Source of the DNA: Botryllus schlosseri
Lineage: Eukaryota
Direction of reading: 5' to 3'
NCBI GenBank assembly: GCA_051294905.1
Contig: CM119372.1
Location: 23,190,001 to 23,254,000 of the forward strand
DNA length: 64,000 nt
Under the pieces are notes generated by a model. That model searched no databases. It was not told where the DNA came from and was given only the letters and a program-made list of their open reading frames with translations. This document shows positions 6,440-10,038 of the stretch, piece by piece (the stretch's first letter is position 1; every line of letters starts with the position of its first letter). Position numbers and translations under genes: made by a program.

Positions 6440-9400
6440 ATGAGTCGACGCAGACGAAATCGTGTTCGCGAAGAACCGAATGCTGCACCAGAGATCGGTG
6501 ACGAACACCAAGAAGTTGTAAATCAGAACTGGCAAGCGATAAAATCGTATGTAGTGAATGAGAGTCGGCGTGTGTATAATATTCGGGTCATCGGTCGGGA
6601 GTTAGCGGATGTTTTCTGCGATATACAAGCTATATTTTTCTCAGAGTCGACCCGTTTCAAAGTCAATTTCGCGTATGCATTTATTTTGTACCACGTCGAG
6701 ACTCTAAGATTTCGCTATTTTCATGCATCGGCGAATGTTGATAGTGTATTAGAAACACCAGCGGCGATTTCAACACTAGCTAAATTCGATGAATTTGTTG
6801 CATCTATAAGGTTGGAAACGGCACTAGATGTGTTACAAGACTCTCGACCAAACACAAAGTCACTACCGATCTGTCTGACTAATGTACAGTTTTATGTATA
6901 TCCTACCGATGGCATGTTGATTGGTTGTGCTGGTATTAAGCTACCAATATGGCTTACAAAATCAAAATGTGTGTTGACGATGTTGCGTCGAAAAAATAAG
7001 AAACTGTACAATGACAATCTATGTGCTTTTCGCTGTATTGGTCACTCACTAGGTAAAGATACAAAAGCATTGGCTCAACAATTTACTTCGGTGTATGGTA
7101 TCAATGTAGAATCTGGTGTAACTCTTGATATGCTGGACGATATCGAGGACTTGTTTAATGTGGCCATATTTGTGTACACAAAAACTGAGGGTAAAGCTGT
7201 CGCGCTCCGTCGTAGTACGTTTGAAGCGAAACCTGTGTACTTACATTTAGAAGATCGCCATTTCTGTCTTATTACTGATATATCCCGTTACGCGGAGAGC
7301 TATCAATGTGATGTTTGCGAAAGATTTTTTTATGAGCAGTATGAATTGACCAGACACAAATGTGTAACGGGTCCTGTTAAAGTGTTTCCCGGTGGCGTGT
7401 ATACACCTCCTCTGAACATATTTGAAAAACTCGATCTAGAAGGGGTGTTCGTTCCCCACCAGCTTCGTTATTTCAAATACCGTATCGCGTTCAGTATAGA
7501 GAGCTTGTATGATACCTCTAAAACTTTGCGAGAGCACCAGAACATTCCCATCTCTGTTAGCATATCGTCTAATGTGGAAGGTTACTCGGAGTTCCATGTA
7601 ATTATCTCGAGCGGTGATACAAACGATTTGTGCTCACAAATGATTGACCATTTTCACGATATTCAAAGTGAATCATTCAGACTGTCACTCACGGAATATC
7701 GACCCTACTTGGACATGCTCAAATCAAAAATTACCGAAATGAAAGCGCTCGATCCTTCAAAACACCTAATACACCTCGAACGTTTGCAAGTGGAGTTTAT
7801 GAGTTATTTACGTCAAATTCCTGTGTTATCATTCAATGGCGGTCGGTATGACTTGAACTGGCTCAAAGCATACTTGTTTGGTTTTCTAGTTGATGAAAAT
7901 CTGAGTGTATTGAAACGCGGTAACAAATTTCTCTCAATGATGACCAACAGACTCAAATTTTTGGATATTGTAAATTACTTGGCACCCGGATTCTCGTACG
8001 ATGCTTATTTGGAAGTCATCGAATGTAGCACCACTAAAGCTCACTTCCCGTACCAGTTTCTGACTAGTTTGGAAAAGTTGAATAACTCGAGTCTACCAAG
8101 CCACGACGAGTTTTACGACCCGCTAAAAGGTTGCAATATATCAACATCAGAATATGAAAGTTGTTTGAAGGTTTGGAACGACAACAAAATGACCACTTTA
8201 CGTGATTATCTCAAATGGTGCAACGTGAACGATACTCATTACTTCATTGAGGGGTTAGAAAAACAATTCCAATCTTTCAAAAGTCAATTCAATGTTGATA
8301 TATTCAAGGATGCGGTCTGCCTGCTCGGGGTTGTATCGAGACATCTTTTTAACAGCATCCCGCGGGATTTCGCAATGTTCAACGACAAACATAAAGATCT
8401 GTTTTCGCTATTCGGGGATAATTTAGTGGGTGGACCATCGATCATTTTCCATCGACACCCAAAACCAGGTGTAACTCGAATAAAAGAACATTTCTATAAG
8501 GAAAATGCACAGATTGCGCAACATATAACAAGTTTGACCAGCGACTCGCTCTATCTGTATGCTTTAAGTCGACCAAGTCCAACCGGATTTGCGGTACGTT
8601 GGCAACCAATCAACGCCGAGTGTACTAAATTCAAACCTGTCAAGACCGCGCCGAAATGCTCAGAGACTGTAACCCAGTGGATGAATTGGTATTCTCATGT
8701 TCACAAGGTGCATGTTCACCACGCTTTTAACGGACCTGAAATTCATGTGGGCGTGCGCAATTATCGACCTGATGGGTTTTATCGTAATTCGGCCGGACAA
8801 GGGATAATCTTATTGTTCCTTAGATGCGATTTTCACGCCCACGATTGCAGATTCGGATGTGGTGACCCAGTACGTCGAGAGCGAGCTAAACGCATTCATG
8901 ATTATTACGAAAGTCTCAATTATCAGGTTGTATGTAAATGGGAATGCGAGTGGAATATTGAGAAGAAGAGAAATCCTCATATTGTGCGATATCTCGATGG
9001 TATTCAACCACAACTGACTCGTGCCAAGTCTGTCACCCCACAGAAATTGATGGAGATGGTGATGAATGGTACTTTCTTTGGTTGTTTGCTGGTTGATATT
9101 TGTACTCGACCACACTCGAAAAAGCGATTCGTTGAACTCCGCCCGATATTCAAAAATACCACAGTGTCTCGCGATACCGTGAAAAGTGACATGAATCAGC
9201 TTGCTGTAGATCGGAAATCACCCAGTAAACCCACTGACATGTTGGTTGCGTCGTACTGCGGTAAGAAAATCTTGCTAACCTCCGACTTGATCAAATGGTA
9301 TGTAGATCACGGGTTGGTGGTATCAAAAATTCATGAGGCTGTCGAATTCGCAAAAAAGACATGTTTTGACAACTTTGCGAAAAATGTCTCAGACTGTCGA

Positions 9401-10038
9401 CGTGCTGGGGATCGCGATCCTAACATGGAGATTATTGGGCTAACGCAAAAACTCGCTGCGAATTCTTGTTATGATCGCGAGTTAATGAATCCGCGTAAAC
9501 TCGAACAAACCACGTTCTGTGATAAAAGTGAATTGAACGCAAATGTGGAGGATCGCTTTTTCGTCAAGTGTGAACAATTAAACACAGATCTATTTGAAAT
9601 AACGAAGCACCCTCAAAAGATCGAGCAAGATAACTGCATTCAAGTGTCGTTCTGGATGTATAATAATGTCAAATTACGGATGTTGTCGGTTTTTTATGAC
9701 TGTTTATGTAAATATTTTCGCGCCGACTGCTTCATGCTACTTTCGGTGGATATCAACTCGTTTTTCATCGCACATTCAGCACCACTCGATGACATTCTCA
9801 TCCCCGAGAAAAGGCATGAATTTTACTGCGATTACGAGAATTGGTTTCCGCGTTATTTTGCGATGACCATCGAAACGAATTCTTGACTGACCCGGCTTCT
9901 TTTGACCGTTCGAGACAATGCTGTAAAGATACGTATGCTCATTATCTTCATCAACCTGGTTTGATGGAAGTGAGATACGACGCCAATGCATCTTTCAATG
10001 GTCTCAATCACTTTCACAGCGATCCAAGAAAAAATTAA
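6440..10038 (+). CDS. Protein-primed family B DNA polymerase (terminal protein/OTU-like - Zn finger - exonuclease - polymerase with VSR-like nuclease insert); catalytically degenerate, 1-nt frameshift at ~9857, C-terminally truncated
   Basis: FNGGRYD (Exo II), LKFLDIVNYLAPGFSY, KAHFPY, VGGPSIIFHR, PDGF/WECEW insert, KLAANSCY (motif B), KLRML. Motif A reads TSDSLY and motif C reads DINS. The tail continues in ORF 9841-10038 (CDDH...CC...PGLM). Confidence 0.9.

Follow-up and report, generated by a model that had tools for sequence, protein, structure and literature searches.

A candidate helper-dependent Polinton form in Botryllus schlosseri which keeps an apparently inactivated DNA polymerase

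Can a Polinton spread with a DNA polymerase which appears to be catalytically dead, and why should such a protein be kept? This question is raised by a stretch of 64,000 nt of the Botryllus schlosseri genome (contig CM119372.1, positions 23,190,001 to 23,254,000), called the window in this work and numbered from its first nucleotide. A first-pass annotation of its sequence had described a young Polinton whose pPolB has replaced residues in five motifs within a long open frame. It had suggested that the inactivation is older than the insertion, that the protein is kept and that a helper Polinton or a host polymerase may be used. Canonical Polintons, or Mavericks, are self-synthesising, virus-like transposons with a pPolB formed by TP, vOTU, Exo and Pol domains, as described in the excerpts of PMC11161782 which we have used. 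We call dead those copies which carry the substitutions, and live those with canonical residues.

The element and its genes

The Polinton spans positions 2168–17958 of the window. Its left TIR (2168–3239, + strand) starts with AGTAGTTAGTATG and contains subterminal tandem repeats of 122 and 32 nt. It is split by a nested MITE-like insert of 421 nt (2512–2932), with ends TAGGGCTGGGCA...TGCCCAGCCCTA and its own 8-bp TSD, GTCACCAA, at 2504–2511 and 2933–2940. This insert is foreign to the Polinton, has numerous partial matches to RNA and contigs and is absent from the right TIR, which is unbroken (17316–17958, - strand, 643 nt). The arms correspond in two pairs, 2168–2511 with 17615–17958 (344 nt, 100% identity) and 2931–3239 with 17316–17624 (309 nt, 99%). 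Overall, the 643 nt TIRs have two mismatches (641/643 identical, 99.7%), and a perfect 6-bp TSD, GTCGTT, is found at both sides (2162–2167 and 17959–17964). Arm alignment and flanks thus reproduce the TIR length, the mismatches and the TSD of the first-pass annotation, which had missed the insert splitting the left TIR. Five further elements of the family also have 6-bp TSDs, each its own.

On the - strand, two ORFs with no assigned function (3371–4003 and 4146–4514, spanning 3371–4514) are common to live elements; the first aligns to its 217 amino acid live counterpart over residues 66–210 only. All other genes are on the + strand. A 298 amino acid ORF with no assigned function (4946–5842) is shared with live elements at 94–95% amino acid identity. 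After the pPolB gene we find a candidate P-loop packaging ATPase (10615–11268; PF00910, 22.1 bits, cutoff 21.5; Pox_A32, E = 0.004, below cutoff) and an rve integrase with a C-terminal chromodomain (11968–13047). The integrase had been considered intact, and Pfam finds both domains (rve PF00665, E = 4e-16, 59.6 bits, cutoff 32.6; Chromo, E = 4.2e-9). Four ORFs without a family match (13229–14134, 14125–14802, 14769–15194 and 15182–15562, spanning 13229–15562) have the same lengths as their live counterparts, as do the remaining ORFs of this copy. The major capsid protein (MCP) candidate (15541–16839) is 100% identical in amino acids to the MCP of two live elements. It has no Pfam match; an Atlas score of 0.98 to clusters with PF21738 DJR-like_dom in 14–30% of their members is a lead only. 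The same applies to the adenain-like cysteine protease candidate (16713–17279, Adenain/Ulp1-like), also with no Pfam match, whose Atlas score of 0.97 to adenovirus endoprotease clusters (13–38% with Peptidase_C5, PF00770) is a lead only.

The pPolB ORF (6440–9886) starts with an ATG in a frame which is open from 6395 to 9886, 1163 codons (about 1140 in the first-pass annotation). Its N-terminus contains a predicted TP-like D1 domain (6560–6913, residues about 56–173), assigned by the architecture given in excerpts of PMC11161782 and by a weak structural match: an N-terminal model of residues 41–158 resembles Y-family little-finger domains (2r8j, 4ir1, 7nv1 and 3gqc; Z 4.1–4.5). After it comes a vOTU-like cysteine protease domain (6938–7297, residues about 182–301), which matches OTUD3 (4bou_A, VIA-align Z 8.7, rmsd 3.4, 102 aligned); OTU proteases make up 27 of its top 30 structural matches, and Cys210 and His289 are invariant across 26 aligned sequences. 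A C2H2 zinc finger (7301–7363) has invariant C305, C308, H321 and C323, with a Pfam match below cutoff. The dead cassette (7493–10346), with Exo, Pol and a thumb relic, is the part which is differentiated from live elements. It includes, between motifs A and B, a Vsr-like endonuclease insertion (8720–8953; 1odg_A, E = 4.5e-7 with the family profile) which is present in dead, live and outgroup pPolBs. We have rejected this insertion as a discriminator between dead and live: Both forms depart alike from the outgroup pattern.

The nearest homologues in protein databases are Polinton pPolBs of echinoderms and tunicates, with 38% identity at best (E = 1e-181). Pfam finds no family at E <= 0.01 in the pPolB ORF of the window copy; PF03175 is passed by live copies (30.7–30.9 bits, cutoff 25.8) and has no match in dead copies up to E = 5. 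An AF2 model of the dead protein (pLDDT 80) has phi29 DNA polymerase as its top PDB match (E = 2e-9), and the PolB fold is predicted to be retained.

Substituted motifs and purifying selection

Motif positions have been fixed by alignment to 18 outside pPolBs and to live copies of the same genome. The five substitutions first described are all found there: Exo I is SIE instead of DxE (7493–7501), Exo III is CNVND instead of YxxxD (8219–8233), motif A is TSDSLY instead of DxxSLY (8537–8554), motif B is YD instead of YG (9470–9475) and motif C is DINS instead of DTDS (9749–9760). Both metal-ligand aspartates of the polymerase site are replaced (motif A D>T, second D of motif C >N). All dead copies have CNxxD in Exo III. 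Exo II (NxxxFD) is intact in dead copies, and motif B (KxxxNSxYG) retains K, N, S and Y, with G>D in 17/17 dead copies.

The ORF of the window copy ends early, at a copy-specific frameshift near 9855. The tail in the shifted frame (9859–10038, CDDHRNEF...PGLMEVRYD...DPRKN-stop) is collinear with the tail that sister dead copies encode in frame; these copies end in ...GL-N(R/H)F...R-stop, with no KxY and no thumb. Live copies run on at the corresponding C-terminus with SKNYFC and about 75 amino acids, so the loss of KxY and thumb noted at first sight holds for the dead form. The former thumb-coding region is a non-coding relic (10039–10346), recognised by DNA alignment to live copies (about 70% aligned identity to live thumb-coding DNA), and evolves faster than the ORF.

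These substitutions are not peculiar to one copy. We have aligned 30 fetched loci, 17 dead and 13 live. All 17 dead copies have the dead substitutions (16/16 for Exo I, where L009 is gapped), and all 13 live copies have canonical residues. At the protein level the dead copies diverge by about 10%, and most of their frames are open. In the whole genome, motif A patterns give 37 dead and 61 live matches, and motif C patterns 38 and 59; reversed-pattern controls give 0 in both cases. The Thr codon of motif A is kept in 37/37 dead-type matches; among the 38 of motif C, a single one (a match with two mismatches on C9) reads GAC (Asp) for the Asn codon. The states of motifs A and C could be linked in 35/37 dead and 58/61 live copies, with no mixed case among these 93. 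Copy-specific decay would predict sister copies with intact motifs, and none has been found: The shared substitutions support the suggestion that the inactivation predates this insertion.

Comparison with other pPolBs also sets the dead copies apart, as the first-pass annotation had proposed to verify. All 18 outgroups have D in Exo I, Y in Exo III, D in motif A and DTD in motif C; motif B has G in 17 of them. Among the nearest 150 representatives (50% clusters), motif A has D in 149/149 and Exo III has Y in 150/150, and no representative has any of the dead states. Sites conserved in outgroups have been lost in dead copies only in 26 cases, against 5 in live copies only, and 13 sites which are 100% conserved across the 18 outgroups are altered in the dead form. 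Tajima relative-rate tests give p = 0.001–0.01 in Exo and Pol and are not significant in the N-terminus. In the Exo-Pol tree, dead copies form one side of a branch with 100% support. A search of viral contigs for relatives gave no match, and 34 pattern matches in metagenome contigs were not confirmed in any case. To judge from these sequences, the dead state appears to be derived and rare. Our literature search, with supplements outside its scope, has found no published account of Polintons in which a whole lineage keeps a catalytically dead pPolB under selection.

Catalytic loss is thus the presumable outcome. A metal site may have been rebuilt: The dead form has gained an invariant Asp (N>D) two residues past the lost motif A Asp. 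It has also retained the first motif C Asp, the motif B residues K, N and Y, and the steric-gate Tyr. In that case the protein might still be catalytic, by means of an altered metal site, distributive synthesis or TP deoxynucleotidylation only, and the element would be autonomous. Selection as strong around motif C as elsewhere agrees with this idea, and there are PolBs which are active although one of their motif C aspartates is missing (excerpts of PMC11161782). Nevertheless, the dead form has lost both canonical metal ligands at once, together with the Gly of motif B, KxY and all of the thumb. The exonuclease site is lost too, 13 sites fully conserved in the outgroups are altered, and none of these states occurs in the 150 nearest representatives. 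We consider residual catalysis quite unlikely.

The dead protein is under purifying selection along its whole length, which bears out the proposal that it is kept. Pairwise Nei-Gojobori estimates give a dN/dS of 0.222 for dead Exo and Pol, from 8 independent pairs (each 0.18–0.27, binomial p = 4e-87), with values of 0.18–0.31 in every window of 85 codons; near motif C they are as low as in the rest. Live copies have 0.074, and the difference is significant (Fisher p = 5e-19). Of the 20 best-scoring dead copies, 18 are free of stops, while 4.2 stops are the neutral expectation at 2.5% divergence. Changes specific to the lineage of the window copy have a dN/dS of about 0.15–0.20 and amount to 2.5–2.7% per site. 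Since the TIR arms differ by just 0.3%, nearly all this divergence arose before integration, under selection.

The frameshift near 9855 would fit ordinary decay, a pseudogene which is open by chance, or an assembly or sequencing artefact. The same states at 37–38 independent loci, the selection on the protein and the stop-free frames refute both, and the dead cassette is also present in contigs from other public runs. We regard this explanation as extremely improbable.

No RNA data set is listed as containing the sequence. In raw reads of the bulk RNA run X23, sampled to about 6% of the run, depth is 0–1.2 over 7370–10054, 14/11 at 10055–10591 and 34/28 on the MITE-like insert. Run X20 gives no coverage. 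Coverage by runs X1 and X2 is even throughout, and these runs may be DNA. The RNA data weigh neither for nor against expression of the dead ORF.

Dead elements have integrated recently, including some without the TP core. Two of the latter, L029 and L030, both with a dead pPolB, have 0 substitutions in 5993 aligned nt, different flanks and different TSDs (CACCAC and GACGTG): Copies free of substitutions which occupy separate sites, with a TSD of their own in each case, are the mark of recent mobility. The two youngest dead elements have TIRs with 99.7% and 99.75% identity; in the two live elements which we have examined in full the TIRs are older, with 96.8% and 97.3%.

Dead and live cassettes in a recombining family

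A census of the family in the genome gives about 40 dead and 62 live cassettes. Outside positions 7200–10350, dead and live elements have 95–99% nucleotide identity, against 74–86% in the cassette block of about 3 kb (7493–10346). There are 188 fixed differences between both forms: The first one is the codon which changes Asp to Ser in Exo I (7493), and there is none between 4895 and 7492. The right boundary of the block comes from an alignment of four elements, as the DNA alignment of 30 loci is misaligned past about 10340, where flanks end unevenly. These results correspond to one assembly, with four elements studied end to end and the ends of two more.

In the TP and vOTU tree, dead and live copies are intermingled, which requires a minimum of 4 changes of state; the TP-like D1 region is common to both forms and recombines between them. 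The dS between cassettes is about 1.0–1.2, and 0.1–0.2 within each. Both forms have AGTAGT termini, with the first 21 nt identical in one dead and one live element. According to these sequence patterns, the two forms appear to share termini, TP-vOTU N-terminus, ATPase, integrase, capsid genes and protease through frequent recombination. The helper proposed at first has thus a concrete candidate in the same genome: about 62 copies with an intact pPolB and AGTAGT termini, in DNA which is otherwise 95–99% identical.

An in-frame deletion of about 79 amino acids in the TP core is found in 6/17 dead and 0/13 live copies among the 30 fetched loci. We have rejected a link of this deletion with dead copies: Genome-wide, 27 matches to the junction pattern, paired to cassettes by coordinates, are found 12 times beside dead and 15 times beside live cassettes (Fisher p = 0.65). 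The sample of 30 loci only looked dead-specific because it was biased by the query. With the deletion beside dead and live cassettes alike, it becomes less plausible that donation of the TP is the sole reason for keeping the dead protein.

The termini also bear on a spread independent of any pPolB, in which host replication or repair polymerases and the element's own integrase would suffice and the ORF would be kept for a reason other than replication, such as delivery of the vOTU deubiquitinase or the Vsr-like nuclease. Conservation of the vOTU Cys and His and of the Vsr-like insert in both forms would agree with it, as would the intact integrase and virion genes. On the other hand, the AGTAGT terminal repeats are identical at both ends of each dead element examined, and such repeats of TP type fit protein-primed copying; moreover, constraint spans the whole Exo-Pol body, beyond the inserted domains. 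Such a spread seems very unlikely to us.

A rival reading is a division of labour, where the dead protein would be a necessary or beneficial non-catalytic replication subunit, which might for instance assist live pPolB at the origin as its partner. Balancing selection would then keep two forms as mutually complementing as the segments of a multipartite virus. The block begins exactly at the first catalytic substitution, as expected for two selected alleles, the cassettes are old relative to the diversity of the family, both forms are common and constraint is uniform over the dead body. Inactive PolB homologues which act as structural subunits, Pol epsilon and herpesvirus UL8, are cited in excerpts of PMC5499653. 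However, 168 other Polinton pPolBs have no such variant and canonical Polintons do without one, low homologous recombination at 75–85% identity could preserve the block by itself, and the benefit for live elements is an assumption only. We think that this division of labour is unlikely.

A proposed helper-dependent form and its known relatives

The explanation which we favour, and consider reasonably probable, is a long-lived, helper-dependent Polinton form with a dead polymerase, whose pseudo-polymerase has a non-catalytic role. The window copy would be a recently integrated member of this form. In this reading one family circulates in two forms which differ in a single cassette of about 3 kb: The live cassette encodes a canonical protein-primed family-B polymerase, and the dead protein would be unable to polymerise. 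As it could not polymerise, dead elements would be replicated in trans, from the common AGTAGT termini, by live pPolB from co-resident or co-infecting live elements; they would then be packaged and integrated by their own intact gene products. The pseudo-polymerase would be kept for a non-catalytic job which needs the whole fold; most likely it would join the initiation complex as a partner or scaffold, or compete for this complex. The exonuclease and the polymerase probably lost their activity at the same time, since a protein with a dead polymerase and an active exonuclease would attack replicating 3' ends.

Two points should be noted. The strong constraint on live pPolB (dN/dS 0.07) implies that elements gain from having their own polymerase, which suggests that a lasting pure free-rider would be puzzling. 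Besides, the TIRs of the two live elements examined end to end are older than those of the two youngest dead ones, so a currently active helper is a candidate only. Excerpts of PMC11161782 also advise caution: A pPolB had previously been called inactivated on account of the first Asp of DTD, and this call has since been withdrawn.

A tentative extension, possible but rather doubtful, is that the cassettes are an old balanced polymorphism in one recombining Polinton population, where the pseudo-polymerase would either work in replication as a factor without catalysis or serve as a weapon when elements compete for the live enzyme. This would be an incipient two-component, multipartite-like virus, or else a stable pair of cooperator and cheater, and selection would keep the block in one piece between the Exo I codon and the lost thumb. 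A block which starts at a catalytic codon in a freely recombining element would be a clean case of selection on alternative functional states in a transposon or virus population. To our knowledge, the copying of Polintons by their own protein-primed polymerase is assumed and has never been shown experimentally. A nearly isogenic pair of live and dead polymerases, both recently mobile in one genome, makes it directly testable, and this pair probably reflects trans-complementation among Polintons.

The dead form resembles canonical Polintons in its TIRs with a short terminal repeat, 6-bp TSD and rve integrase, in its ATPase, capsid and protease candidates, and in a pPolB with vOTU fold, zinc finger, Vsr-like insert and phi29-like body. 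It differs from them in the lineage-wide loss of catalytic residues, KxY and thumb, yet with a selected ORF, and in the presence of a live sister cassette inside the same recombining family. Like non-autonomous transposons, defective interfering genomes and satellite viruses, it has the termini of an autonomous relative in the same genome, has apparently lost replicase function and has been mobile recently. In elements of these kinds the replicase gene is normally deleted or left to decay. Of vertebrate Mavericks, 96% have stops or frameshifts which make them defective (excerpts of PMC8097293). Unlike the usual helper-dependent elements, the Botryllus form keeps a full-length pseudo-enzyme under selection (dN/dS 0.22) and has all other genes intact.

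Excerpts of PMC5499653 describe several inactivated PolB homologues: the C-terminal half of Pol epsilon, an archaeal inactive PolB family, herpesvirus UL8 and a poxvirus virion protein. They share with the dead form a PolB fold without catalytic residues and a presumed structural role. By analogy with the dead half of Pol epsilon and with UL8, the kept pseudo-enzyme would suggest that the pPolB body serves protein-primed replication in some way other than catalysis. Those homologues are fixed genes beside an active polymerase in the same cell or virus genome, while the dead and live versions of Botryllus are alternatives at one locus, found in different genomes of a single mobile-element population.

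The helicase-pPolB fusion of polinton-like viruses, Tlr1 and transpovirons is also derived from a Polinton pPolB, with an altered motif C; it was called inactivated in 2016 (PMC5499653) and judged probably active in 2024 (PMC11161782), according to the excerpts of both papers. Compared with what they report, the dead form goes further: Replacement affects the motif A Asp as well as the second Asp of DTD, and the losses extend to Exo I, Exo III, motif B, KxY and thumb. Finally, adenovirus and bidnavirus pPolBs have an inactivated vOTU domain (excerpts of PMC11161782), another case of a dead domain which is kept in a protein-primed replication protein, presumably with a structural role. The situation described for these viruses is the reverse of that found in Botryllus: Their protease is dead and their polymerase alive, whereas the dead form has invariant vOTU Cys and His and an apparently dead polymerase.

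Two polymerase cassettes in one Polinton family

The window contains a Polinton whose protein-primed DNA polymerase of family B (pPolB) has lost its canonical catalytic residues: We call this type dead, and live the type which retains them. The pPolB gene is a 1163-codon open frame (6395–9886, + strand) with an ATG at 6440. When it is aligned with six copies from the same genome and 18 outside pPolBs, the five substitutions proposed by the first-pass annotation are found exactly where it had placed them, all on the + strand: S-I-E in Exo I (7493–7501), C-N-V-N-D in Exo III (8219–8233), T-S-D-S-L-Y in motif A (8537–8554), Y-D in motif B (9470–9475), and D-I-N-S in motif C (9749–9760). 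All 18 outside proteins have D in Exo I, Y in Exo III, D in motif A and DTD in motif C; the Gly of motif B is present in 17. A frameshift near 9855 is specific to the window copy. The shifted frame (9859–10038) gives the short C-terminal tail of the sister dead copies, so KxY motif and thumb are absent even when the frame is corrected, as had been suggested.

We have searched the single assembly which includes the window (495.5 Mb, 219 contigs). Forty of 368 candidate copies were scored: 20 are 89–92% identical to the window protein and 20 are 77–80% identical. The longest ORFs of 30 fetched loci were aligned, 17 of them dead and 13 live. The substitutions are found in all 17 dead copies (16 of 16 for Exo I, where one row has a gap). 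These 17 end in ...GL-N(R/H)F...R*, without the Lys of KxY, with Phe in place of Tyr and with no thumb. The live copies, 1295–1300 amino acids long, present DIES, YNAID, DSNSLY, SYG, DTDS, and SKNYFC followed by about 75 more residues. The canonical residues have been lost across the dead lineage, whose protein is presumably unable to polymerise. Two live copies pass the Pfam PF03175 cutoff (30.7 and 30.9 bits, cutoff 25.8); two dead copies give no match to it up to E = 5.

Genome-wide counts with 30-nt patterns (at most three mismatches) give 37 dead and 61 live matches for motif A, and 38 dead and 59 live for motif C; reversed patterns used as a control give none. By coordinate matching, dead motif A adjoins dead motif C in 35 of 37 cases and live motif C in none, while live motif A adjoins live motif C in 58 of 61 and dead motif C in none. 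Linkage is complete, with about 40 dead and 62 live cassettes in the assembly.

Four elements were compared from end to end: the window element, one further dead element and two live ones. Outside approximately 7200–10350 all pairs are 95–99% identical, whatever their type. Inside this block identity is 74–86% for dead-live pairs, 90–98% for dead-dead pairs and 89–96% for live-live pairs. A tree of 7490–9860 separates the 17 dead from the 13 live copies (100% support, branch 0.41). On the other hand, both types are intermingled in the tree of the terminal protein and OTU-like protease domains (TP and vOTU, 6440–7190), where well-supported branches force at least four state changes. Between 15 dead rows (without loci L009 and L030) and 13 live rows there are no fixed differences in 4895–7492 and 188 beyond. 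The first two, 7493 and 7494, lie within the Asp-to-Ser codon of Exo I. In the polymerase part, dS is about 1.0–1.2 between cassettes and 0.1–0.2 within each type, therefore the age of the split is several times that of the diversity within either type. The joint loss of Exo and Pol sites and the block edge at the Exo I codon are compatible with mixed proteins having been selected against; the block would also be preserved if such diverged sequences recombine little.

Purifying selection on the dead polymerase

Pairwise Nei-Gojobori dN/dS is 0.227 for dead-dead pairs (dS 0.22) and 0.107 for live-live pairs (dS 0.23). Loci L008 and L009, with partial ORFs, were excluded, and also L030 from the dS comparison of separate parts. 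We have also chosen eight phylogenetically independent dead pairs on a tree of the copies, and have compared them with six live pairs. The dead pairs have 416 synonymous and 377 non-synonymous differences in Exo+Pol, a dN/dS (w) of 0.222, with 0.18–0.27 in each pair (binomial p = 4e-87). The live pairs have w = 0.074 (Fisher p = 5e-19 for the difference between the two ratios). Dead w is 0.18–0.31 in every 85-codon window, therefore no subdomain has been freed from constraint. The whole dead protein is under purifying selection, in agreement with the earlier proposal that it is kept as a long ORF. In fact, 18 of the 20 best-scoring dead copies have no stop codon, while 4.2 are expected in a neutral dead ORF at 2.5% divergence.

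Compared with three agreeing dead copies, the window lineage has 27–33 synonymous and 20–21 non-synonymous changes in Exo-Pol (w about 0.15–0.20, 2.5–2.7% per site). The TIR arms differ by only 0.3%, therefore nearly all this divergence took place before integration, under selection. The substitutions common to all 17 dead copies place the inactivation before the window insertion, as the first-pass annotation had supposed.

With outgroups as reference, the dead lineage has evolved faster in Exo (22 unique changes, 5 in the live lineage) and Pol (40 and 17), not in the N-terminus (9 and 6). It has lost 26 outgroup-conserved sites, the live lineage only five, all by conservative changes; 160 are retained in both.

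The AF2 model of the full-length dead pPolB (pLDDT 80.1, pTM 0.73) has phi29 DNA polymerase as its best PDB match (2pyj_B, E = 2.2e-9, TM 0.53 on target). Residues 16–350 were modelled separately (pLDDT 85): 167–286 match OTU proteases (OTUD3, Z 8.7, rmsd 3.4, 102 aligned; OTU in 27 of the top 30 rows) and 41–158 weakly match Y-family little-finger domains (Z 4.1–4.5). C210 and H289 do not vary across 26 aligned sequences. The modelled layout fits the TP-vOTU-Exo-Pol order described for Polinton pPolBs in a section of PMC11161782. Family profiles add a C2H2 zinc finger between vOTU and Exo, and a Vsr-like (very-short-patch repair) endonuclease insert (E = 4.5e-7) between motifs A and B (8720–8953), in the same place throughout this pPolB group.

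Recent integration of dead elements

The window element occupies 2168–17958 (15,791 bp, nested insert included). The almost identical TIRs and perfect TSD of the first-pass annotation are confirmed: The 643-nt TIRs have two mismatches between arms, their termini start with AGTAGT, and the TSD is GTCGTT. The outer 300–350 nt of the TIRs (window 2207–2467) consist in all elements of 122-nt and 32-nt tandem repeats, only about 60% identical between copies, yet without differences between arms of the same element.

A 421-nt MITE-like element missed by the first-pass annotation is nested in the left TIR (2512–2932), with ends TAGGGCTGGGCA...TGCCCAGCCCTA and its own 8-bp TSD GTCACCAA; its insertion is later than Polinton integration. 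It has by far the deepest coverage, with numerous loose ends, in RNA reads and contigs, and so belongs to an abundant family. Elsewhere on the element, notable RNA-read depth is only found in 3074–4147 and in 10055–11128, from the pPolB end to the ATPase start (14/11, then 5/6). The latter reads bear variants of other copies and may mark where transcription of the ATPase gene begins. About 20 nt past the right end begins a host exon of the Major Facilitator Superfamily (PF07690, 93 bits, 17980–18960), and an open frame extends into it from within the right TIR: The insertion site is in or directly beside a transporter gene.

The claim of intact integrase, ATPase, capsid and protease motifs stands for the integrase (rve, with a chromodomain); the ATPase has a P-loop and weak Pfam hits, capsid and adenain-like protease are candidates from Atlas leads only, and several ORFs have no family. 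Each ORF downstream of pPolB equals in length its counterpart in two live sister elements, and the MCP candidate shares 100% protein identity with theirs.

The ends of six elements were read (two of them at the ends only): Each element starts with AGTAGT and is flanked by a 6-bp TSD of its own; the first 21 nt are identical between one dead and one live element. The intact polymerase with such termini which the first-pass annotation sought is thus found in the live cassettes. TIR-arm identity is 99.7% in the window element, 99.75% and 94.3% in two other dead elements (loci L029 and L036), and 96.8% and 97.3% in two live ones. In L036, an older dead copy, an insertion of about 2 kb breaks the capsid gene (equivalent to window ~16113).

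Six loci (L011, L013, L023, L026, L029 and L030) have an in-frame deletion of about 79 amino acids (equivalent to window 6629–6865), which leaves little of the predicted TP-like D1 domain in the pPolB N-terminus. L029 (contig 6) and L030 (contig 10) combine this TP-core deletion with a dead cassette. They have no substitutions in 5,993 aligned nt, although their TIR tips differ; flanks are unrelated and TSDs are different (CACCAC and GACGTG), therefore this doubly defective form has integrated at least twice recently. On either side of the L029 element, the host DNA (L037/L038) itself forms an inverted repeat, about 1.45 kb long (95% identity), so this element is embedded in a further repeat or in a palindromic structure.

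The deletion junction has 27 matches genome-wide, 12 beside the roughly 40 dead cassettes and 15 beside the roughly 62 live ones, with one unmatched. Elements with a live polymerase and no TP core would themselves need TP supplied in trans. Since the deletion accompanies both cassettes, trans-complementation seems general in this family, and retention of the dead protein as a mere TP donor is unlikely.

Dead elements share termini and genes with live ones, and have integrated recently. Live pPolB would act in trans on the common origins, and the pseudo-enzyme would serve a non-catalytic role requiring the whole fold.

Comparison with other polymerases

No outside protein is closer than 38% identity; echinoderms and a tunicate supply the named relatives. 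Among the best 150 representatives of a 1.84-billion-protein library clustered at 50% identity, the Asp of motif A is present in 149 of 149, the Tyr of Exo III in 150 of 150, the Gly of motif B in 135 of 136, and the second Asp of motif C in 117 of 118 (the sole exception is in a poorly aligned, truncated end). By these sequence counts the dead state is not common; uniqueness is not implied, as clustering at 50% would hide a dead variant 80% identical to a live one. Run X19, whose label gives another organism code (organism B), has 0.32 of the sampled dead-cassette words, equal to runs labelled as the window's species.

Our literature search found no description of a Polinton form with a selected, catalytically dead pPolB. 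Vertebrate Mavericks, as portrayed in part of PMC8097293, are mostly defective by stops or frameshifts, with intact core genes under strong purifying selection. A portion of PMC5499653 lists PolB homologues which have been inactivated and are presumed to play a structural role. Some PolBs, according to a passage in PMC11161782, are not inactivated by losing the first Asp of DTD; here, in contrast, the second Asp and the Asp of motif A are gone.
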